Positions 2,617 to 61,568 of a DNA stretch of 64,000 bases are shown here, piece by piece. Each line of letters starts with the position of its first letter. Positions within the stretch are counted from its first letter, which is position 1. The position numbers were made by a program, and so were the translations under genes. The stretch comes from Escherichia phage PNJ-9: sequence record PQ100635.1. One strand, given 5' to 3'. Below the pieces are notes generated by a model, which was not told the DNA's origin, did not search any database, and saw only the letters and a program-made list of their open reading frames with translations.

Positions 2617-2635
2617 AAATTAAATGGAGTCCACA

Positions 2636-2875
2636 ATGATTTATTACGAAAGTGTTGGAACTAAAGTGGTTGCTAAAACCATTACTCGTGAAAAGTTTGC
2701 AAAGATATTCGATATGCGTTATAAAAAATCTGAACACAAAGGCATCCGATTCGAAGATGCGCACTGTACAATTTGTCCTTATAATGAAGACATAAACGGT
2801 ACAATCGTTCCATTGGTAGAGGCTTCACATGACGACCTCTGGGATGAATATAATATCGCATGTCGCGAAATTTAA
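2636..2875 (+). CDS. hypothetical protein
   Basis: ORF track 2624-2875; ATG at 2636 with GGAG 6 nt upstream, just downstream of an early-promoter cassette. Confidence 0.55.
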   Translation: MIYYESVGTKVVAKTITREKFAKIFDMRYKKSEHKGIRFEDAHCTICPYNEDINGTIVPLVEASHDDLWDEYNIACREI

Positions 2876-2900
2876 GTAATCTAAATTCGAGGAAATTATT

Positions 2901-3857
2901 ATGATGTTAGTTATTGGTTCTCGTGCACTTCACTATCACAGTCTTATTGATTCTAACGCTATCAAAAATAGTGACTGGGACTTTATTGCAGACCAAGGTT
3001 CTTGGAATGCATTCAAAAATCAAATGATGGGTGTATATGTTCATCAAGATAACCCTGATGTCCAAGTTTTCAAATGCTTCCATAATGGACGCGAAACTCA
3101 TTTTGAAGCATATATTGTTCCGGCAATCACTAATGTCCGTGAATTAGTCGGTGAACTCACTCCTGAAGATTTCACGTCTTCTTATGACCTTTTAAAATAC
3201 GCCAAGAAAAATTTGACTAAAGACCGTTTGAACGGGTTTTACTGGGCAACTCCTGAGATATGTCTTGCAATTAAAATGTCTCATCGTTTCAAGAAAAATA
3301 ATCCATTCTTTTTAAAGACTATGAACCATATTCAGTATCTTCGTGGTAAAGGTGTTACACTGAACGATGAACTTACTGAAATTATGCTGAAACGCCAGAA
3401 AGAAACTTTGAACTATGCTCACCCAGTTCTTGACACTTCTAAAAGTGCGTTCTTTAAAGATGACATCTATACATATGACCATGATACTATTCACGAAGCC
3501 ATTGCACTAACAGACCGTCCGGCTTATACGTTTTACATGAAAGACGGTTCTGAAGTCATGACCTCACGCGAGAAGTTCGAATCGTTACCAGAAATGGTCA
3601 AATTGGCCGGCGTATATGAAGAATCATGTGTACTAGCGTTAGAACGTTCTCAGATTCCTAATAACTTTGAAATTAACCCTGAAGCCAGTTTCATGATGGC
3701 ATTAGAAAAAGTCTGCACAAGCATCACCTCCGGTTGGTTCCGTGAGTTCGCTTGGGAAAATTATAGCAAAGTAGTAAGTATGTATCAAAGCTTAGGACAC
3801 GACGATTACGTCAAGCGTTTCAAACAAAATTTTCATATGGTAAAACCTTTCAAATAA
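2901..3857 (+). CDS. hypothetical protein (318 aa)
   Basis: Long ORF with GAGGAAA upstream; no family assigned. Confidence 0.65.
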   Translation: MMLVIGSRALHYHSLIDSNAIKNSDWDFIADQGSWNAFKNQMMGVYVHQDNPDVQVFKCFHNGRETHFEAYIVPAITNVRELVGELTPEDFTSSYDLLKYAKKNLTKDRLNGFYWATPEICLAIKMSHRFKKNNPFFLKTMNHIQYLRGKGVTLNDELTEIMLKRQKETLNYAHPVLDTSKSAFFKDDIYTYDHDTIHEAIALTDRPAYTFYMKDGSEVMTSREKFESLPEMVKLAGVYEESCVLALERSQIPNNFEINPEASFMMALEKVCTSITSGWFREFAWENYSKVVSMYQSLGHDDYVKRFKQNFHMVKPFK

Positions 3858-3869
3858 TTTCACCAAACT

Positions 3870-3904
3870 GTTTACAAGGTCTGTAGTTGTTGATACTATA
3901 GACC
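3870..3904 (+). promoter_or_regulatory. early-promoter-like cassette with inverted repeat
   Basis: GTTTAC, 18 bp, TACTAT; IR GGTCTGTAG/CTATAGACC. Confidence 0.45.
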
Positions 3905-3936
3905 TATCAAAACAAATGAGTGAATGGAGATACAAA

Positions 3937-4137
3937 ATGACTACTTTGAATAAACGTTTCGGTAAAGCTAAACCTGGCTGTGCAGCAGAACGTCGTTACA
4001 TTTTCGCTCAGTTAGAAGATGTAGAGTATCAGATTAATCAAGTTCACATTACTGGCATCGAGCCTATGTGTGGCCTTGAAGCTCTTCGTGAAGTTCGTGA
4101 CGGGTATCGTCGTGATATCGAAGAAATGTCAAAATAA
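3937..4137 (+). CDS. hypothetical small protein
   Basis: ORF track 3916-4137; ATG at 3937 has better spacing to GGAG. Confidence 0.5.
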   Translation: MTTLNKRFGKAKPGCAAERRYIFAQLEDVEYQINQVHITGIEPMCGLEALREVRDGYRRDIEEMSK

Positions 4138-4176
4138 GTGTACAAACTGATAGGGCTATGTTATAGTAGTCCTATT
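4138..4176 (+). promoter_or_regulatory. early-promoter-like cassette with inverted repeat
   Basis: GTGTAC, 18 bp, TATAGT; same GATAGGGCTA...TAGTCCTAT module as at 2589. Confidence 0.45.
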
Positions 4177-4195
4177 AAAACATGAGGAGAATATT

Positions 4196-4501
4196 ATGAA
4201 ATTAACAGAAACCAACCGAATTGGTCTTTTAACAATACTTGCATCACCTTTTTACGCAGCCCTTTCTGTTGCAGTATTACAAAAGGCTTACGATATGGAT
4301 GGTGTTCCTGGTTTTATATTCTTATCGCCGTTTTTGCTATTCGTTGGAGCATTGTTATTATATGCCACGACTGGTTTCGACCATAATGTCTGGGTCAATT
4401 ATAAATGTAAATTGTCTGAAGAAGAACACGCAGAAGCTCGTAAAAAAGCTATTGAATCTACCAATCTAGAAAATTTCATTAAAGAATGTCGAGGAAAATA
4501 A
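4196..4501 (+). CDS. small membrane protein, C-terminal ENFIKECR tail family
   Basis: TM helices; C-terminus STNLENFIKECRGK; GAGGAG upstream. Confidence 0.6.
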   Translation: MKLTETNRIGLLTILASPFYAALSVAVLQKAYDMDGVPGFIFLSPFLLFVGALLLYATTGFDHNVWVNYKCKLSEEEHAEARKKAIESTNLENFIKECRGK

Positions 4502-4502
4502 T

Positions 4503-5189
4503 ATGAATAGTTCTAAAGTGTTTAATAGTCAAGCTCGTGCAGTAGGTGGTTTTGCCGGCGGTATTTCTAATGATAAAATCAAGAACGAGCCTATGTTCTT
4601 CAACTGTAGTTTAGAATTTGCTTATAATAATGGCGGTCCTATTACTCGCTCTTTCATTATGAACTTGCCGGATGATTGGAACACCGACCAGGTTGTATTT
4701 GATTCACGAGTCCACATGCTGATGCCTGGTTGGTATCCTGCTATTCCTGGATATCACCATGATGACGTACCACGCCCAGATATTCCAACAGGACAACATT
4801 TTATTACTGCAGGACAACCTGATTATGACAACCCTCGTTACCATTCTGAACATATTCTTGGTCTTGTTAACGCTGATGTGTGTCCTACTCATTTTGCAAC
4901 AGGAACTGCAGAGTTCAGTCAGATTCCTGATGGCGAACTTATCTATCGCCAGTGGCACAAAGAAGTCCTCGAAAAAATCGAAAAAGGCGAACTAGAGAAA
5001 TGGGAAGCTCCGGACCGTACTCTTCTTCAGTTTGATTGGCAAACATGGCACACTGGTTCTCGTGCAATTAGTAATGGATGGCGGTGGTTCGGACGTGTAT
5101 CTCGTAATACAGACCGAGTTAAAAAGATTACCAATGAAATTCGTGTCAACGCCCAAGTTTATCTGGAATTCCCTATGGAAGGCTGGTAA
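4503..5189 (+). CDS. hypothetical protein (228 aa)
   Basis: ORF track; starts 2 nt after upstream stop. Confidence 0.6.
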   Translation: MNSSKVFNSQARAVGGFAGGISNDKIKNEPMFFNCSLEFAYNNGGPITRSFIMNLPDDWNTDQVVFDSRVHMLMPGWYPAIPGYHHDDVPRPDIPTGQHFITAGQPDYDNPRYHSEHILGLVNADVCPTHFATGTAEFSQIPDGELIYRQWHKEVLEKIEKGELEKWEAPDRTLLQFDWQTWHTGSRAISNGWRWFGRVSRNTDRVKKITNEIRVNAQVYLEFPMEGW

Positions 5190-5668
5190 TGATTAACAAT
5201 AATATAGACGATGGCAATGAAGGTATTTCATACTATTCAGTAGATTGGACAGGATGTCCATCCTACTTAGTGAAACATATTTGCCAAGAATTTAAAATCG
5301 ACCAGCCAGCAGGTATTATCGTGAACAGATACATTAATGGATATCAACCTATCGATGAAGTAATACGAACAACTCAAGCTGAGCTTGAAAAGTTTTTCAA
5401 TAAGTGCCAATGGATAACAGGATGGATTATATTTGTACCGTCAGTGTGGTTTTTTAGTACTAAGGTGAGTTCTTTCGGTTTTGTTGATATTATTGCTATC
5501 TTATTAGCATCTAGTATCATAAGTGTTGTTGGTGGCATCATTGGCGGCGGTACCGCCGCCATCATTATTAATCTTGTTAAAAGTAGTTTACAGGAACGTA
5601 AAGACAAGATAAAGGCCAAGAATAATGAAGTTGAACGTTTTATTACCGAATGCAGGAATTTGAGATGA
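5189..5668 (+). CDS. membrane protein, C-terminal ERFITECR tail family
   Basis: TAATG overlap; Gly-rich TM segment; C-terminus NNEVERFITECRNLR. Confidence 0.6.
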   Translation: MINNNIDDGNEGISYYSVDWTGCPSYLVKHICQEFKIDQPAGIIVNRYINGYQPIDEVIRTTQAELEKFFNKCQWITGWIIFVPSVWFFSTKVSSFGFVDIIAILLASSIISVVGGIIGGGTAAIIINLVKSSLQERKDKIKAKNNEVERFITECRNLR

Positions 5669-10901: not shown

Positions 10902-11360
10902 ATGACTATCAATTCTGACGTTTTTATCCGCCGTAATAAACTCCGTCGAATCTTTGAAACGGAGTTCCGCAAAATAAATGCCGGTATAAAAGATGCTGCA
11001 AAGTCTCTTGGACTACCAGGCTTTCATATCAAGTATTCTCAACATCTCTTAGATCGTGCTATCCAGAGAGAAATAGATGAGAACTACGTTTTTGAATTAT
11101 TTCGTAAAGTAAAAAATCATGTTAAAGAAGTTGCAGAATTTTTATCAATGCCGGCACGTCCAGATGTTGATGAAGATTTTGTCGAAGGTGTCGAATATCG
11201 CCCAGGCCGTTTAGAAATAACTGATGGAAATCTTTGGTTAGGACTTACAGTTTGTCGCGAAAATCCAGCATTCAAAATGAAGACTCTTCAATGCAGAATG
11301 GCTATTATTAACAATAAACGACTACCAGGAAAAGCTTCTAAAGCAGTGATTAAAATCTAG
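10902..11360 (+). CDS. regB: endoribonuclease RegB
   Basis: MTINSDVFIRRNKLRR...SQHLLDRAIQREIDE...RPGRLEITDGNLWLG matches T4 RegB along whole length. Confidence 0.93.
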   Translation: MTINSDVFIRRNKLRRIFETEFRKINAGIKDAAKSLGLPGFHIKYSQHLLDRAIQREIDENYVFELFRKVKNHVKEVAEFLSMPARPDVDEDFVEGVEYRPGRLEITDGNLWLGLTVCRENPAFKMKTLQCRMAIINNKRLPGKASKAVIKI

Positions 11361-11368
11361 AGGTAAAC

Positions 11369-11911
11369 ATGAGAAAAGCACTACTCGCTGGTCTATTTGC
11401 TCTTTCATTATCAGCACATAGCTCCGAGCATACTTTTAGTAATGTCCAACTCGATAACTTGAATTATGCTTATCAGTTTGGGGAACAGTTTTCTAAGGAT
11501 GGAAAATTTAAAACGCATGAAAATATGCATAAGAAAGGACTTGGATACATAATGGCCGCAATACTATGGCAGGAATCATCTGCCGGTATTAATCTTAAAG
11601 ATAAGAAAGGTCACCATGCGTATGGAATGTTCCAAAACTATCTACCAACAATGAGGGCAAGAATTAACCAGCTTGGTTATAATATGACTGATGCCCAAAT
11701 TAAGAAAATGCTATCTAAGCGGTCTAATTCAACCAGATGGGCTTATATCGAATTTTCTTATTGGTTAAATATACATAACGGGGATATAAGAAAAGCTATA
11801 TCCTCATATAATGCGGGATGGAAGACAAGTGCTGGAAGTAAATATGCTTCTGAAGTCCTAGAAAAGGCTAATTACCTTAAATCAAATAAACTACTGGAAA
11901 TAAAAGAATGA
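11369..11911 (+). CDS. secreted lytic-transglycosylase-like (SLT-domain) protein
   Basis: Signal peptide MRKALLAGLFALSLSA; SLT-like motif WQESSAG...AYGMFQ. Confidence 0.6.
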   Translation: MRKALLAGLFALSLSAHSSEHTFSNVQLDNLNYAYQFGEQFSKDGKFKTHENMHKKGLGYIMAAILWQESSAGINLKDKKGHHAYGMFQNYLPTMRARINQLGYNMTDAQIKKMLSKRSNSTRWAYIEFSYWLNIHNGDIRKAISSYNAGWKTSAGSKYASEVLEKANYLKSNKLLEIKE

Positions 11912-12255
11912 CCAAAGTGTTGGCTTTAATAGTTGGCTTGGTTTCATTTAACGCTCTTGCTAATACTACATATACTGATGTAACGGAGTATACAAATAGA
12001 ACGGCGTCTGATTATTGTGGTAAAAGTCAAGAGTGTAAAGTAGATTTTTCACAAAAATTGTTATATGCGTATAAAGACGGAGAAAAAGATGGGGCGTCTA
12101 GTAGGTTCAAGGCGTCTACCTTAATTAAAAGATACTATAAAAAATGGCAAATATTAGAATGCTCGGTGGCGGAACCTAAAGATAAGGCAGCATGCAATTC
12201 TATGGTGGACCGTCTAGTTGACTCTTATAATAGAGGACTTGCAGCAAGTGATTAA
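11908..12255 (+). CDS. secreted/periplasmic hypothetical protein
   Basis: Signal peptide MTKVLALIVGLVSFNALA; ATGA overlap. Confidence 0.6.
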   Translation: MTKVLALIVGLVSFNALANTTYTDVTEYTNRTASDYCGKSQECKVDFSQKLLYAYKDGEKDGASSRFKASTLIKRYYKKWQILECSVAEPKDKAACNSMVDRLVDSYNRGLAASD

Positions 12256-12715
12256 AAACTATATCAAGGGCGATATTGTCGCCCTGTTTTCTAAAGGTAA
12301 TAATATTGCTCATGGGTGTAATTGTTTTCATACAATGGGCGCTGGTGTGGCAGGACAATTAGCAAAGGCTTATCCAAAAATTTTAGAAGCCGATAAACTT
12401 CAAACCGAATTCGGTGATGAGACTAAACTCGGGACTTATTCGGTTTATGAAAAATATTTTAAGACCCATAAAGCTTATTGCTTTAATCTTTATACACAGT
12501 TTGAGCCGGGACCTAATTTTGAGTACTCTGCTTTAATGAATTGTATAATAGAATTAAATGAATTCGGAAAGAATAAGATAACAAAGCCTGTAATTTATAT
12601 GCCAAGAATTGGTGCAGGTATCGGTGGTGGAAACTGGGATGTCATCGAAGAGATTTTAGATACGTATTCCACTAAACTAGAAATTGTGATTGTTGATTGG
12701 GAACCGTTATTATGA
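12218..12715 (+). CDS. macro-domain protein (ADP-ribose binding/processing)
   Basis: Macro signature NIAHGCNCFHTMGAGVAGQLAKAYP and GAGIGGG; non-ATG (TTG) start on track, true start uncertain. Confidence 0.6.
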   Translation: MTLIIEDLQQVIKNYIKGDIVALFSKGNNIAHGCNCFHTMGAGVAGQLAKAYPKILEADKLQTEFGDETKLGTYSVYEKYFKTHKAYCFNLYTQFEPGPNFEYSALMNCIIELNEFGKNKITKPVIYMPRIGAGIGGGNWDVIEEILDTYSTKLEIVIVDWEPLL

Positions 12716-12924
12716 ATATACATTATCCACATCCATATGACCCAAAGAATAAGGTAGTAATTATTCGTCAATGGGAACGCATTTGTCGTACCAAATGTCC
12801 AATTAATAGTCCACATGATGTAGATAAAGACTACATCGGAACATTCGTTGAATATACCTTTATTGATAAGAAAGGTCGTAAACAGCATGTAGAAGAATAC
12901 TGCTTAAAGGTGACATGGTTATGA
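12712..12924 (+). CDS. hypothetical protein
   Basis: ATGA overlap. Confidence 0.5.
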   Translation: MNIHYPHPYDPKNKVVIIRQWERICRTKCPINSPHDVDKDYIGTFVEYTFIDKKGRKQHVEEYCLKVTWL

Positions 12925-13106
12925 GTTTAAGTAAAGAACAAAAAGACAAACTCTTTTCTCTTATCCACGAAGTTATGGATAAAAATAGTGAATTGGAAAA
13001 AGTTTGTAATGAATGCGGTCCTTTTAGTGCAAACGAGTACGAAGAACTTTCTAAAGAATTCGATAATAAAGAACAAGAACTTATTAATTATATAAATTCC
13101 TTATGA
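12915..13106 (+). CDS. hypothetical small acidic protein (paralog pair)
   Basis: ORF track; resembles next ORF (EQK..LF.L..E pattern). Confidence 0.5.
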   Translation: MVMSLSKEQKDKLFSLIHEVMDKNSELEKVCNECGPFSANEYEELSKEFDNKEQELINYINSL

Positions 13107-13291
13107 TTACTCGCGAACAAAAGAACGAAATATTATTTTTAGTTGGTGAAATTATTAGTTTAGAAAAGGATTTGTCTTTTGAAATATCTTCTGAATATGG
13201 AGATGCCGAAACATATTACGAATTAGTAAAATCTATCGATAAAGCTGAAAATGATTTAAAAACATATTTAGAAAATTTAACTAAGGATTAA
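13103..13291 (+). CDS. hypothetical small acidic protein (paralog pair)
   Basis: ORF track; ATGA overlap. Confidence 0.5.
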   Translation: MITREQKNEILFLVGEIISLEKDLSFEISSEYGDAETYYELVKSIDKAENDLKTYLENLTKD

Positions 13292-13292
13292 A

Positions 13293-13874
13293 ATGGCTAG
13301 TTTAATTTTTACATATGCCGCTATGAACGCTGGTAAGTCTGCTTCATTACTTACAGCCGCACATAACTATAAAGAACGTGGCATGGGTGTATTAGTTCTT
13401 AAACCGGCTATTGATACTCGCGATTCAAAAGGTGAAATAGTCTCTCGTATTGGTATTCGTCAGGACGCCAATATAATTACAAAAGACATGGATATCTTTG
13501 AATTCTATAAATGGGCTGCAGCACAAAAGGATATTCATTGTGTATTTGTTGACGAAGCTCAATTCTTAACTACTGAAAAGGTGTATCAACTTAGTCGTAT
13601 TGTTGACGTATACAATGTGCCGGTAATGGCATATGGACTACGAACAGATTTTAAAGGTAATCTATTTGAAGGTTCTCAAGCATTAATGGCTATTGCCGAT
13701 AAGCTTGTTGAACTTAAAGGTGTCTGTCATTGCGGTAAAAAGGCCACAATGGTAGCTAGAGTCACGGAAGACGGACTTCCAATTACAGATGGCAGTCAAA
13801 TTGAAATTGGTGATACTGATAGATATGTGTCATTATGCCGGAAGCATTGGAATGATTTGACAGGGTTGTTATAA
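13293..13874 (+). CDS. tk: thymidine kinase
   Basis: P-loop AAMNAGKS, FVDEAQF Walker B, C-terminal CxCG...C zinc site; 193 aa as T4 Tk. Confidence 0.93.
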   Translation: MASLIFTYAAMNAGKSASLLTAAHNYKERGMGVLVLKPAIDTRDSKGEIVSRIGIRQDANIITKDMDIFEFYKWAAAQKDIHCVFVDEAQFLTTEKVYQLSRIVDVYNVPVMAYGLRTDFKGNLFEGSQALMAIADKLVELKGVCHCGKKATMVARVTEDGLPITDGSQIEIGDTDRYVSLCRKHWNDLTGLL

Positions 13875-13901
13875 ATACTAATATCTAACCAAGAGGTATA
13901 T

Positions 13902-14114
13902 ATGCAGCAATTAAACGAAAGACAACTTCGTAATCTTACTGTAACCCAACTGGATGAAATCCGAAGAGAATTAGGACATTCTATTTCTCATTTAAACGAG
14001 GATATCCGTCAAACTGGTTCTAAAGCTGATTATACACGCAAGCGCAAGCTGGAAAAATACCTCACAGATGTTAAGGCCGTCCAAAGGCGAAAAATAAATA
14101 CTGGCCAAAATTAA
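13902..14114 (+). CDS. hypothetical protein
   Basis: ORF track; GAGG upstream. Confidence 0.55.
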
Positions 14115-25038: not shown

Positions 25039-25512
25039 ATGTTATTATCTGGCAAATTATACAAAGAAGAAAAACAAAAATTTTATGATGCACAGAATGG
25101 TAAGTGTCCTATTTGCCACCGTGAATTAGACCCTGATGTTCAAGGTAACCATCTTGACCACGACCACGAATTAAACGGGCCAAAAGCAGGTAGAGTTCGT
25201 GGGTTACTCTGTAATCTGTGCAACGCAGCAGAAGGCCAAATGAAGCATAAGTTCAACCGTTCCGGTCTTAAAGGACGTGATGTCGACTACCTCGAATGGC
25301 TTGAAGCTCTTCTTGCTTATTTGAAACAAGATTATTCTGATAATAATATCCATCCTAATTTTGTTCCAGACAAAACTAAAGAGTTCTCAAGACTAGGTAA
25401 AGAGGAAATGATGGCTGAGATGCTTCAAAGAGGATTTGAATATAATGAATCTGATACCAAAACACAATTAATAGCTTCATTCAAAAAGCAGCTTAGAAAG
25501 AGTTTAAAATGA
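25039..25512 (+). CDS. 49: endonuclease VII (Holliday junction resolvase)
   Basis: MLLSGKLYKEEKQKFYDAQNGKCPIC...HLDHDHELNG matches T4 gp49; 157 aa. Confidence 0.95.
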   Translation: MLLSGKLYKEEKQKFYDAQNGKCPICHRELDPDVQGNHLDHDHELNGPKAGRVRGLLCNLCNAAEGQMKHKFNRSGLKGRDVDYLEWLEALLAYLKQDYSDNNIHPNFVPDKTKEFSRLGKEEMMAEMLQRGFEYNESDTKTQLIASFKKQLRKSLK

Positions 25513-26046
25513 AAATTGAAAAAGAAATTGAAGGATTAATTCATAAAACTAATAAAGATCTTTTGAACGAGAATGCTAATAAAGATTCTCGTGTTTTTCC
25601 AACTCAACGGGACCTTATGGCTGGTATTGTGTCTAAGCACATTGCCAAAAATACGGTCCCGTCTTTTATTATGAAAGCACATGAAAGCGGAATTATCCAT
25701 TTCCATGATATTGATTATTCTCCTGCTCTTCCATTTACTAATTGCTGTTTAGTCGATTTAAAGGGGATGCTTGAGAATGGATTTAAATTAGGCAATGCTC
25801 AAATTGAAACGCCTAAATCGATTGGTGTTGCTACTGCAATTATGGCACAAATTACTGCGCAGGTTGCTTCCCATCAATACGGTGGAACTACATTTGCGAA
25901 TGTAGATAAAGTCCTTTCTCCTTATGTTAAACGCACCTACGCAAAACATATTGAAGATGCAGAAAAATGGCAAATCTCTGATGCGTTGAATTATGCCCAA
26001 TCTAAAACAGAAAAAGATGTCTATGACGCGTTCCAGGCGTATGAGT
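25509..26046 (+). CDS. nrdD: anaerobic ribonucleotide reductase NrdD, exon 1
   Basis: Class III RNR N-terminal region; frame interrupted at 26046 by group I intron. Confidence 0.85.
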
Positions 26047-27079
26047 TAATTTAATTCAGGCTCATGTAAAACCGGTCTAAACGGGGAACCTCTCTAGTAG
26101 ACAATCCCGTGCTAAATGTTCTTTTGAACTAAATGCCTAACGACTAACCGTGATGAATGTAGCGGTGTAGAATAGAAGCTAATGCTATTCGAAACGGCCG
26201 GCATCGAAAGATGAAGATATAGTCTAATCTGCATGGCGACATGCAGCAGTCATCTTGTATAAATAAGATTATCTTATGAATACGAGGTGAAACAATGAAA
26301 TGGATAAAAAGACGTTGTACTAAAATAAAAGATAAAGACGCATTTACATACTTAGTTAAGTTTTCTAATGGTGACATTTATATCGGTTATAAAAAATTTA
26401 GAACAATTAAAAACAAGCCCACAAACTGGAAAACTTACACAACGTCATCTAAGTATATAAATGAACGCTTAAAAACTGATACACCTACTAAATGGATAAT
26501 TTTAAAAACATTTGATAGTTATAAAGATGCATTAAAACATGAAGAAGAGGTCATACGTAAATATTTTTATAGCAAAAAATGTTTAAATAAATCCATAGGC
26601 GGTAAAAAGTTTTATAAGCATCCGGATACTGAAGAACATATTCAAAAATTAAGAGATGCTCATAAGGGTAAAGTGTTATCCGAATCTCATAAAAACAATA
26701 TAAAATCTTCTGTAGCTGAATATTATGCTAAAAACGGAAGATCTAAGGAACATGTGCAAAATAATATCAATAGTCGAAAAAGTAAAAAACAAGTATCGAT
26801 AAAGCTTAAAAATAAAACTTTTAGAAGTTTTAAAAAAGCAGCGGAATATTTAAATTGCACTGAAAGTGAAGTCGAAACTCATCCTCTTGTTTTGAGTATT
26901 AAGACTACTATTCATAAAGTTCCTGAATATGTGGTTGTTGACGGTATTAAGTATACGTCTTATATAGAAGCAGCTAAAGCGCTAAATTTTCATCCTAGCA
27001 CTATAAAAGAACGTTGCATATCTATGGACTATCCAAATTTTGTTGTTTCATATAAACGGGCATGAATTTGCGACTCATG
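26047..27079 (+). mobile_element. group I self-splicing intron in nrdD (T4 sunY/nrdD-type), 1033 nt
   Basis: P1: exon UAUGAGU pairs with GCUCAUG with U.G at splice site; conserved core CTAAACGGGGAACCTCTCTAGTAGACAATCCCGTGCTAAAT; P10 CUGAAU pairs with AUUCAG; omega G at 27079. Confidence 0.85.
26295..27065 (+). CDS. intron-encoded GIY-YIG homing endonuclease (I-TevII-like)
   Basis: GIY-YIG-like FTYLVKFSNGDIYIGY; lysine-rich, AT-rich; located 3' of intron core. Confidence 0.8.
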   Translation: MKWIKRRCTKIKDKDAFTYLVKFSNGDIYIGYKKFRTIKNKPTNWKTYTTSSKYINERLKTDTPTKWIILKTFDSYKDALKHEEEVIRKYFYSKKCLNKSIGGKKFYKHPDTEEHIQKLRDAHKGKVLSESHKNNIKSSVAEYYAKNGRSKEHVQNNINSRKSKKQVSIKLKNKTFRSFKKAAEYLNCTESEVETHPLVLSIKTTIHKVPEYVVVDGIKYTSYIEAAKALNFHPSTIKERCISMDYPNFVVSYKRA

Positions 27080-28371
27080 CTGAATATAATGATGAAGTAA
27101 ATACACTTTTCAGCTCTAATGGACAAACGCCTTTTGTAACAATTACATTTGGCACGGGAACTGACTGGACTGAACGAATGATTCAGAAAGCAATTCTGAA
27201 AAATCGTATTAAAGGTCTTGGCCGTGACGGGATAACTCCTATTTTCCCTAAACTTGTTATGTTCGTTGAAGAGGGTGTCAATCTTTATAAAGACGACCCG
27301 AACTACGATATTAAGCAGCTTGCTTTAGAATGCGCAAGCAAAAGAATGTATCCTGATATTATTTCAGTTAAGAACAATAAAGCTATTACTGGTTCTTCAG
27401 TTCCTGTTTCTCCGATGGGCTGTCGTAGTTTCTTGAGCGTATGGAAAGATTCGACTGGTAATGAAATTCTTGATGGACGTAATAATCTTGGTGTTGTAAC
27501 ACTGAATCTTCCTCGTATTGCATTAGATTCTTATATTGGAACACAATTCAATGAACAGAAATTTGTTGAGCTATTTAATGAACGAATGGATCTGTGTTTT
27601 GAAGCTTTGATGTGTAGAATTAGTTCTTTAAAGGGTGTTAAAGCAACTGTAGCTCCTATTCTTTACCAAGAAGGTGCATTCGGGGTTCGTCTTAAACCTG
27701 ATGACGATATAATTGAGTTATTTAAAAATGGTAGAAGTTCAGTGTCCCTAGGATACATTGGTATTCACGAATTGAATATTCTTGTCGGACGTGATATTGG
27801 ACAGGAAATTTTAACTAAAATGAATGCTCGTCTTAAGCAGTGGACTGAAAGAACCGGTTTTGCTTTTAGTTTATATTCTACTCCTGCTGAAAACCTTTGT
27901 TATCGCTTCTGTAAACTTGATACAGAAAAATATGGAAGTGTAAAAGATGTCACCGATAAAGGCTGGTACACTAACAGTTTCCACGTTTCAGTAGAAGAAA
28001 ATATTACTCCATTTGAAAAGATTTCTCGTGAAGCCCCATATCATTTCATTGCAACAGGCGGTCACATTTCTTATGTTGAACTTCCAGATATGAAAAATAA
28101 CTTAAAAGGTCTTGAGGCTGTCTGGGATTATGCTGCACAACATTTAGATTATTTTGGTGTTAATATGCCAGTAGATAAATGTTTTACATGTGGAAGTACT
28201 CATGAAATGACTCCTACTGAAAACGGATTTGTTTGTTCAGTTTGTGGAGAAAGTGATCCTAAAAAGATGAACACCATAAGAAGAACATGTGGTTATTTGG
28301 GAAATCCGAACGAACGCGGATTTAATCTCGGTAAAAATAAAGAAATCATGCATAGGGTTAAACACCAATGA
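27080..28371 (+). CDS. nrdD: anaerobic ribonucleotide reductase NrdD, exon 2
   Basis: Continues frame after intron; C-terminal Zn site CxxC...CxxC and glycyl-radical region RTCGYLG. Confidence 0.85.
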
Positions 28372-60801: not shown

Positions 60802-60901
60802 AGGCTTATCTTTAAATGGAGGTCTATCATGACATGTCAATCTGAACTTCAAGAACGCGAATACCTAACAAAATCATTCATTTAAAAATGTTGAATTTTT
60901 A

Positions 60902-60959: not shown

Positions 60960-61568
60960 ATGTTTATGCCGTATAACGAGTGTGAAATTGAAGAAATGGT
61001 TCGTCGTGCTCAATGCCCAGACTATCAGGATGAACTTCAGTACAAAATCGATGAGCAATTCAGCGACATTGAACAAAGTGTACTATGGCAATGTATGGAA
61101 AACAAGCCAGACAGCATCCAACAAGATTTAAGTGCAATTGTTCGTAGAAATTGGACGTCTTCTGTTCCTGAGACAATGTATCGTGGAATCTCTAAGAAAA
61201 CTATGGCCACACTCGATGATAAAGGCGTTGGTAGTATTATTAAATTTGATAGAGTAATGAGCTTTAGTCCGGTGTTTGGTGTAGCACGTAACTTCGCTTC
61301 GTATAATTTTTACGGAACATTTAATATGTTCTGCATCAAAGATGCACCATTTGCTTTCAACTTCCGTGAACATATGCTTAACATGATTCTGGCTGCGCCA
61401 TCTTGTGAGTTCAATGGAGCTTTCCCTGAAGCGACAAGACGGTCTAATGCTAGACTTATATCTGACGAATGTGAATTTATGCTCCCTATAGGGACTACAC
61501 TGCGTGTAGATTCTATTATTCAAGATGGACGTTATACAATCTGGAATCTGACTATTGTCAGTTACTGA
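60960..61568 (+). CDS. mono-ADP-ribosyltransferase (ModA/ModB-like)
   Basis: R-S-ExE order: YRG, SFSPV, ECEF; 202 aa; near srd/dda as T4 mod genes. Confidence 0.55.
   Translation: MFMPYNECEIEEMVRRAQCPDYQDELQYKIDEQFSDIEQSVLWQCMENKPDSIQQDLSAIVRRNWTSSVPETMYRGISKKTMATLDDKGVGSIIKFDRVMSFSPVFGVARNFASYNFYGTFNMFCIKDAPFAFNFREHMLNMILAAPSCEFNGAFPEATRRSNARLISDECEFMLPIGTTLRVDSIIQDGRYTIWNLTIVSY

Follow-up and report, generated by a model that had tools for sequence, protein, structure and literature searches.

The 64,000-nucleotide stretch of Escherichia phage PNJ-9 DNA analysed here (record PQ100635.1; the window, at its full length) carries, at 12248..12715 (+), a gene for a 155-amino-acid single-domain macrodomain protein, read from a GTG start to a TGA stop. 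The gene is the Mosigvirus orthologue of T4 tk.4, also named adfM, and its product is probably a macrodomain hydrolase that frees phage DNA of the ADP-ribose attached by DarT2. The gene as such is already known: it is the RB69-group copy of T4 tk.4, for which a role against DarTG2 was described in 2025, and deposited records of near-identical phages annotate it as a macro domain protein. The present analysis adds the placement of the protein in a subgroup of macrodomains that have a glutamine at the position of the catalytic lysine, the recognition that the Vibrio phage protein Adpp belongs to the same broad family, and the lack of a family member in phage T5.

Orthology and gene order

Over bases 11000-14000 the window shares 99.5% identity with Escherichia phage PNJ-6 and 98% with phage moskry, two members of Mosigvirus (RB69-like Tevenvirinae), and it was assigned to this genus, that is, to an RB69-like T-even phage. 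The macrodomain protein matches the product of T4 ORF 60.5 (ORF, open reading frame) at 132 of 155 residues (85%), without gaps (E 2e-105). In T4, ORF 60.5 lies between vs and tk.3; the annotation of phage IME08 gives the label tk.4 to its gene at that position. The T4 and PNJ-9 proteins share their full length of 155 residues, their position between vs and tk.3 and every conserved family residue. They differ by 23 substitutions, among them K127 in the phosphate loop of the T4 protein, where the window protein has the family-consensus G127; the T4 gene starts with ATG, that of the window with GTG, and the phenotype described below is known from the T4 allele. The ratio of nonsynonymous to synonymous divergence between the two genes (dN/dS) is 0.07, with dS about 1.2, and the gene is under strong purifying selection.

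The order of genes around tk.4 is that of the T4 early region (record X04567). Upstream lie regB (10902-11360), a gene of the T4 vs.1 type (11369-11911) and vs (11908-12255, +), the last of which belongs to the family of the T4 'vs' valyl-tRNA-synthetase modifier (PHROG 1256, E 2.2e-35). On the 3' side are a DUF7202 gene of the tk.3 type, two small ORFs, tk (13293-13874) and then rI. The immediate neighbours of the macrodomain gene are thus vs and the DUF7202 gene, within the conserved series regB, vs.1, vs, tk.4, tk.3 ... tk. Its location beside vs.1 and vs is simply conserved T-even gene order, with no functional link evident.

The picture within Tequatrovirus is more varied. Two types of tk.4 allele occur in this genus, and the protein of phage MLF4 (gene at 1201-1680) is only 58% identical overall to that of T4. 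MLF4 and T4 are nearly identical in the DNA upstream of the gene and in its first few dozen nucleotides, and the first 40 or so residues of the proteins are far better conserved than the remainder. This pattern looks like a recombination junction within the gene and like the diversification of an anti-defence gene.

Translation start and expression signals

A mechanical ORF of 165 codons with a TTG start does exist at 12218-12715, as the initial annotation described; the doubt it expressed about the N-terminus proved justified. We place the true start at GTG 12248, which gives a protein of 155 residues, because this codon aligns exactly with the T4 ATG, the T4 gene has an in-frame TAG immediately 5' of that ATG, a 1-nucleotide indel between the window and T4 leaves the two sequences with no common frame 5' of the start, and GenBank records of near-identical phages annotate a 468-nucleotide coding sequence from the equivalent position. 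A Shine-Dalgarno motif, GAGGA, can also be read at 12233..12237 (+), 10 nucleotides upstream of the GTG; it is kept in T4, and record X04567 has a ribosome-binding site annotated there. The T4 in-frame TAG and the indel led us to reject TTG 12218 as a start, and the upstream part of the mechanical ORF (12218..12247, +) lies outside the macrodomain gene and forms part of vs alone, at its 3' end. The revised start and the 155-residue product should be of use for annotation and for the design of phage experiments.

The TAA stop of vs (12253-12255) falls 5 nucleotides inside tk.4, and this overlap suggests that the two genes are translationally coupled. Within tk.4, codons 7-13 contain an 8-base-pair hairpin (12267..12285, +), a terminator-like match followed by a U-rich run, GUUUUCU, that is able to pair with the Shine-Dalgarno motif GAGGA. 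The predicted RNA fold of 12225-12305 has an energy of -19.1 kcal/mol (z -2.65). The hairpin forms in T4 too, but there the fold falls short of significance (z -1.63) and the Shine-Dalgarno motif is predicted to pair differently. The window, T4 and MLF4 agree at every base of a 26-nucleotide block around the hairpin. The hairpin could serve translational control or could just reflect conserved codons, and its significance is uncertain. A scan for promoters and terminators around the gene gave a yield no richer than shuffled sequence (promoters 12 versus 13.5, terminators 4 versus 2.1).

The T2 Tk.4 protein has been detected by proteomics (2026 preprint). In the same preprint, T2 tk.4 mRNA was captured together with the host small RNA ArcZ on Hfq, the gene being mislabelled there as a putative thymidine kinase.

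Macrodomain fold and family

The protein matches Pfam PF01661 (Macro) with 28.5 bits against a curated cut-off of 22 (E 1.6e-6, 115 residues covered) and PHROG 335, a family labelled 'phosphatase', with an E value of 1.2e-66. An AlphaFold2 model built from 62 homologues has a mean predicted local distance difference test score (pLDDT) of 95.6, and the protein has the three-layer alpha/beta/alpha macro fold with its two glycine-rich ligand loops. The assignment to the macrodomains, first made from a sequence signature in the initial annotation, is therefore secure.

Fourteen positions are invariant in the 62-member alignment (G23, N25, C26, G33, A35, D49, G62, N80, Y82, Q84, P119, I121, G122 and G124) and 17 more are conserved in at least 90% of the members; at none of these positions does the window protein depart from the consensus. 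Three segments stand out. The active-site asparagine and the first glycine-rich loop are encoded at 12311..12346 (+), spanning H22-G23-C24-N25-C26-F27 and M30-G31-A32-G33, with the Asn codon at 12320-12322; here H22 (found in 60 of the 62 members), C24, F27, M30 and G31 each reach at least 90% conservation. The glutamine strand, N80-L-Y82-T83-Q84, is encoded at 12485..12499 (+), the Q84 codon being 12497-12499. The phosphate-binding loop (12602..12637, +) reads P119-R-I-G-A-G-I-G-G-G-N-W130; in this loop I125, G127, G128 and W130 are at least 90% conserved and position 126 is Ala or Gly family-wide.

By tblastn, members of the family were found in 2848 of 50,697 phage records, including phages of Pseudomonas, Vibrio, Acinetobacter, Campylobacter, Bacillus, Streptomyces and other hosts. 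The genomic context of one homologue labelled as bacterial (P0113, from a Nitrospirae metagenome-assembled genome) is a short phage-like contig and is uninformative.

A lysine-free active site

Among solved structures, BT1257 of Bacteroides is the best match to the window protein both by sequence (E 5.9e-11; 5e-17 with a profile) and by structure. Profile alignment to such structures puts Q84 on Lys84 of human TARG1 (OARD1) and on Gln82 of BT1257, and G126 on TARG1 Asp125 and BT1257 Ala128. These alignments, made with hidden Markov model profiles, were relied on in place of a MAFFT alignment with TARG1, DarG, PhiKZ gp104, Poa1p and BT1257, in which the catalytic strand was shifted by 1-2 residues between families and which was left unused. 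Q84, present in 62 of 62 homologues, thus takes the place of the catalytic lysine of TARG1 (K84) and DarG (K80), and the Lys84/Asp125 dyad of TARG1 is replaced by Gln84/Gly126.

The papers on SCO6735 of Streptomyces coelicolor describe the same substitution. In that work, TARG1 Lys84/Asp125 and DarG Lys80 have their structural counterparts in SCO6735 Gln85/Ala130 and BT1257 Gln82/Ala128. SCO6735 hydrolyses thymidine-linked ADP-ribose on DNA and shields Streptomyces from DarT; its activity is abolished by the changes Q85A or Q85E and nearly abolished by N27S. Its authors proposed a water-initiated mechanism in which the glutamine positions the distal ribose. N25, which is invariant, and H22 of the window protein match N27 and H24 of SCO6735, the residues that position its glutamine, by the H-x-x-N motif and by numbering, and the asparagine equivalent to N25 is needed both in SCO6735 (N27S) and in the PhiKZ protein AdfM (N23A). 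A search of the Protein Data Bank (PDB) with the C-terminal 94 residues, aimed at the glutamine region of SCO6735, aligned only the phosphate loop, and the correspondence with the SCO6735 glutamine consequently rests on BT1257 and the published superposition.

Given the constellation H22/N25/Q84 and the best match to BT1257, we place the window protein among the lysine-free macrodomains of the SCO6735/BT1257 type, and not with DarG or TARG1. It shares with this ALC1/TARG1-like group (PDB 5E3B, 2FG1, 2AFC) the glutamine for lysine, a small residue for Asp125 and the H-x-x-N motif. It differs in that SCO6735 and BT1257 are cellular, not phage, proteins with about 30% identity to it, and in having a shorter loop after the glutamine.

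The contrast with DarG is marked. The window protein scores 33 bits against the NCBIfam DarG model NF048014 (cut-off 250), covering positions 4-146 of the 338 in the model, and has LYTQ where DarG has the FPTK lysine motif. DarG has a C-terminal DarT-binding domain and sits beside darT; the window protein, with its 155 residues, has neither such a domain nor an adjacent darT. We rejected a filing under DarG or TARG1, whose defining residues and scores the protein lacks.

This distinction bears on a question of nomenclature. Gp104 of phage PhiKZ, also named AdfM, strips the ADP-ribose added by DarT2 from an oligonucleotide in vitro, an activity impaired by the N23A change (PMC13309987, Cell Rep 2026). 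Gp104 is a genuine macrodomain of the DarG type: it matches Mycobacterium tuberculosis DarG at an E value of 9e-25, has the lysine motif FPTK and reaches 132.9 bits against the PADLOC DarG model, compared with 34.1 bits for the window protein; a BLASTP comparison of gp104 with the window protein aligned only 23 residues. What the window protein has in common with gp104 and DarG is the fold, the conserved asparagine and the proposed task of taking DarT2-attached ADP-ribose off DNA. On these comparisons, gp104 and the window protein are separate recruitments of the macro fold for apparently the same task. Since T-even AdfM falls in the lysine-free subgroup and not in the DarG lineage, mechanistic conclusions and inhibitors should not be transferred between it and PhiKZ AdfM.

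Protection from DarTG2

DarT2 ADP-ribosylates thymidine in single-stranded DNA. When a T4 transposon library was grown on a DarTG2 host, tk.4 was the sole significant hit, and a clean tk.4 knockout turned DarTG2-sensitive; the gene was renamed adfM, for anti-DarT factor Macrodomain (bioRxiv 10.1101/2025.11.20.689424). Removal of ADP-ribose from DNA by T4 AdfM was proposed in that study, a preprint of November 2025, and not demonstrated (bioRxiv 10.1101/2025.11.20.689424). The T4 NADAR protein AdfN counters only the guanosine-specific DarTG1 system, and T2 as well as T4 lacking adfN remain resistant to DarTG2. Phage T5, which is restricted by DarTG2, provides a consistency check for the anti-DarTG2 role: no ORF of its whole genome, searched in three parts, matches the family profile even at an E value of 10, and the positive controls of the same search gave 217 bits for the window, 214 for T4 and 118 for a Vibrio phage. 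T5 does carry two genes annotated as Sir2-like, T5.102 and T5.105.

The fold, orthology, conservation and active-site make-up of the window protein are directly established. We infer that this allele acts like T4 tk.4 and that it does so enzymatically on DNA; we propose to describe its product as an early-region, cytoplasmic, single-domain macrodomain hydrolase. One could picture its action as follows. Infection of a DarTG2 host would release the DarT2 toxin, which would ADP-ribosylate N3 of thymidines in single-stranded phage DNA and so block replication. The MGAG and GAGIGGG loops would form the macrodomain cleft that binds the ADP-ribose moiety, and hydrolysis of the C1''-N glycosidic bond would release ADP-ribose and restore thymidine. 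There being no catalytic lysine, Gln84, held by Asn25, may position the distal ribose, with water doing the chemistry. The phage enzyme would in effect be an orphan antitoxin without a DarT-binding domain. If so, the gene predicts DarTG2 resistance of Mosigvirus phages, a property that matters for matching phages to hosts.

Several points weigh against this interpretation. The phenotype evidence comes from T4 only, and it is genetic and reported in a preprint, in which the enzymatic removal from DNA is inferred (bioRxiv 10.1101/2025.11.20.689424). K34 and K89 of SCO6735, which position the DNA, seem to fall on A32 and G88 of the window protein, a correspondence by numbering only (as an offset from the Asn and Gln), with no residue-level SCO6735 alignment obtained for that region. 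With a net charge of about -3 by residue count, the protein is not obviously DNA-binding. The H-x-C-N-C and N-x-Y-x-Q site also occurs in a protein from an Adps-macro-Namat operon of Vibrio phage Cody, discussed below; an operon of this type encodes the phosphatase Adpp of Vibrio phage Gary, and sequence alone therefore cannot fix the substrate. Lastly, SCO6735 also inhibits DarT by binding, so that protection need not be purely catalytic.

The last point can be taken further, to a protein that mainly binds and blocks DarT2 stoichiometrically and whose catalysis is dispensable. Catalytically dead forms of SCO6735, DarG and TARG1 all inhibit DarT in vitro, that of SCO6735 most strongly. However, N25, Q84 and the glycine loops are strictly conserved across phages of very different hosts, which argues for selection on chemistry rather than on the surface of one toxin, and a protein of this size, at 33 bits against a cut-off of 250, offers no counterpart to the DarT-binding domain of DarG. 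We consider blocking as the main activity improbable.

A phosphatase relative and the question of substrate

The 'phosphatase' label of PHROG 335 invites a different reading, namely that the protein is mainly an ADP-ribose-1''-phosphate (ADPR-1P) phosphatase of the Poa1p/Adpp type, which would turn the ADPR-1P made by RES-domain NADases such as aRES into ADP-ribose. The macrodomain protein Adpp of Vibrio phage Gary dephosphorylates ADPR-1P, the product of these NADases (bioRxiv 10.64898/2026.01.28.702374). After this step the NARP1 pathway can rebuild NAD+, and Adpp, Adps and Namat are all needed against aRES (bioRxiv 10.64898/2026.01.28.702374, January 2026). Adpp and yeast Poa1p share with the window protein the broad family PHROG 335, the H-x-C-N-C motif and chemistry at the 1'' carbon.

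A further relative lies in Vibrio phage Cody, where a homologue with 36-37% identity and a score of 118 bits against the family profile is encoded between genes for a phosphoribosyl-pyrophosphate-synthetase-like (Adps-like) and a nicotinamide-phosphoribosyltransferase-like (Namat-like) protein (2629-5635), the NARP1-AP layout. The Cody protein is of the Adpp type as judged from this operon layout, not from comparison with the Gary protein. It keeps N80, Y82, Q84 and H-x-C-N-C; the N-x-Y-x-Q motif, present in the Cody homologue, is not seen in Poa1p.

Set against this, Adpp works by feeding NARP1, and a tblastn search of the 64-kb window with Cody Adps and Namat gave no homologue of either. The substrate of Adpp is a small molecule, its gene lies inside the Adps-Namat operon, and identity to the window protein is about 36%. 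Among Escherichia phage records, 189 have Namat-like genes and 1002 have the macrodomain gene, from which it follows that most T-even phages lack the partner enzymes. And the Cody protein reaches only 36-37% identity, against 85% for the syntenic T4 Tk.4 with its DarTG2 phenotype. The phosphatase role is therefore the weaker reading for the window, and unlikely as the main activity, though with a slight edge over stoichiometric blocking; the database label is probably misleading for T-even phages. The idea in the initial annotation that a phage macrodomain might degrade ADP-ribose-derived defence molecules finds a partial echo in the distant relative Adpp; its extension to this phage is weakened by the reliance of Adpp on a NARP1 operon that the window lacks.

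The phosphatase activity may, however, be carried out at the same site in addition to the first activity, not in its place. It is tempting to speculate that the Tk.4-type macrodomain is a general ADP-ribose-1''-X hydrolase, one lysine-free glutamine site removing both thymine-N3 and phosphate (from ADPR-1P). Such a dual activity is conceivable because both reactions remove the C1'' substituent of ADP-ribose; we hold the idea tentatively, as a possibility with the odds against it. If true, a small early protein found in about 5% of sequenced phages would be a counter-measure to multiple defences, recruited independently of the DarG-like macrodomain of PhiKZ, and two convergent solutions would go by the one name AdfM.

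Degradation or sequestration of ADP-ribose-derived immune signals, for example the cyclic ADP-ribose isomers of Thoeris, would be another way for a macrodomain to serve a phage. The protein showed no homology to known sponges or degraders of such signals, and its closest relatives are hydrolases of 1'' linkages. Of all the functions considered here, this is the one to which we give the least credence.

The ADP-ribosyltransferase of the phage

The initial annotation had also pointed to an ADP-ribosyltransferase elsewhere in the window. This ORF, at 60960-61568, is indeed of the Mod type (PHROG 832, E 7e-39), and by tblastn it matches annotated modA and modB genes with about 33% identity. Since macrodomains are general erasers and readers of ADP-ribosylation, the one in the window could in principle reverse or read the marks set by the phage's own Alt and Mod enzymes, such as arginine-linked ADP-ribose on RNA polymerase and other host proteins or the RNAylation performed by ModB. 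The distribution of the genes speaks against such a role: Mod homologues occur in 1080 phage records, essentially T4-like phages of enterobacteria, whereas the macrodomain family occurs in 2848 and in phage groups without Mod. The two genes are about 48 kb apart, and a ModB-like gene of the sister phage has been lost from the window with the macrodomain gene intact. T4 Alt and Mod modify arginine. No TARG1-class macrodomain is known to cleave the arginine linkage, which counts further against this role, and the only reported phenotype of T4 tk.4 is DarTG2-specific.

A task in undoing Alt and Mod modification is therefore very unlikely, and on account of distribution and distance we discarded the idea that the macrodomain and the Mod transferase work as a pair. 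The reversal of ADP-ribosylation, also foreseen in the initial annotation, is the most likely job of the protein, its T4 orthologue being needed against DarTG2; that same requirement points to a host-made DNA modification as the target rather than the phage's own protein modification, and leaves the suggested tie to the in-window transferase unsupported.

The loss near the transferase can be located. At a junction about 60868-60872, some 500 nucleotides of moskry are missing, covering most of its ModB-like gene moskry_38. Between mrh and the remaining transferase there are short ORFs only, and the window has a single Mod-type transferase.

Other features of the window

The proteins encoded just upstream of tk.4 had been viewed as secreted, one of them lytic-transglycosylase-like, and as periplasmic. 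The vs.1 ORF (11369-11911) does have a signal-peptide-like N-terminus, but its SLT match is weak (an E value of 7.8e-4 and 19.4 bits, where the cut-off is 21.3), and the ORF at 11908-12255 turned out to be a member of the vs family. Signal-peptide-like N-termini occur in both proteins, MRKALLAGLFALSLSAHS... in vs.1 and MTKVLALIVGLVSFNALA... in vs. Such a start is unexpected in Vs, given its annotation as a modifier of cytoplasmic valyl-tRNA synthetase. According to the HIDEN-SEQ preprint, vs gains importance in minimal medium.

Elsewhere in the window, nrdD, the gene for anaerobic ribonucleotide reductase, is in two pieces, at 25509-26054 (Pfam NRDD positions 1-141) and 27040-28371 (145-562). 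They are separated by a group I intron (Rfam RF00028, 74 bits, 26015-26246), found only with the 'evalue' threshold and missed with the 'gathering' threshold, and an ORF for a GIY-YIG/NUMOD1 homing endonuclease (26295-27065). The nrdD gene of the sister phage moskry has no insertion.

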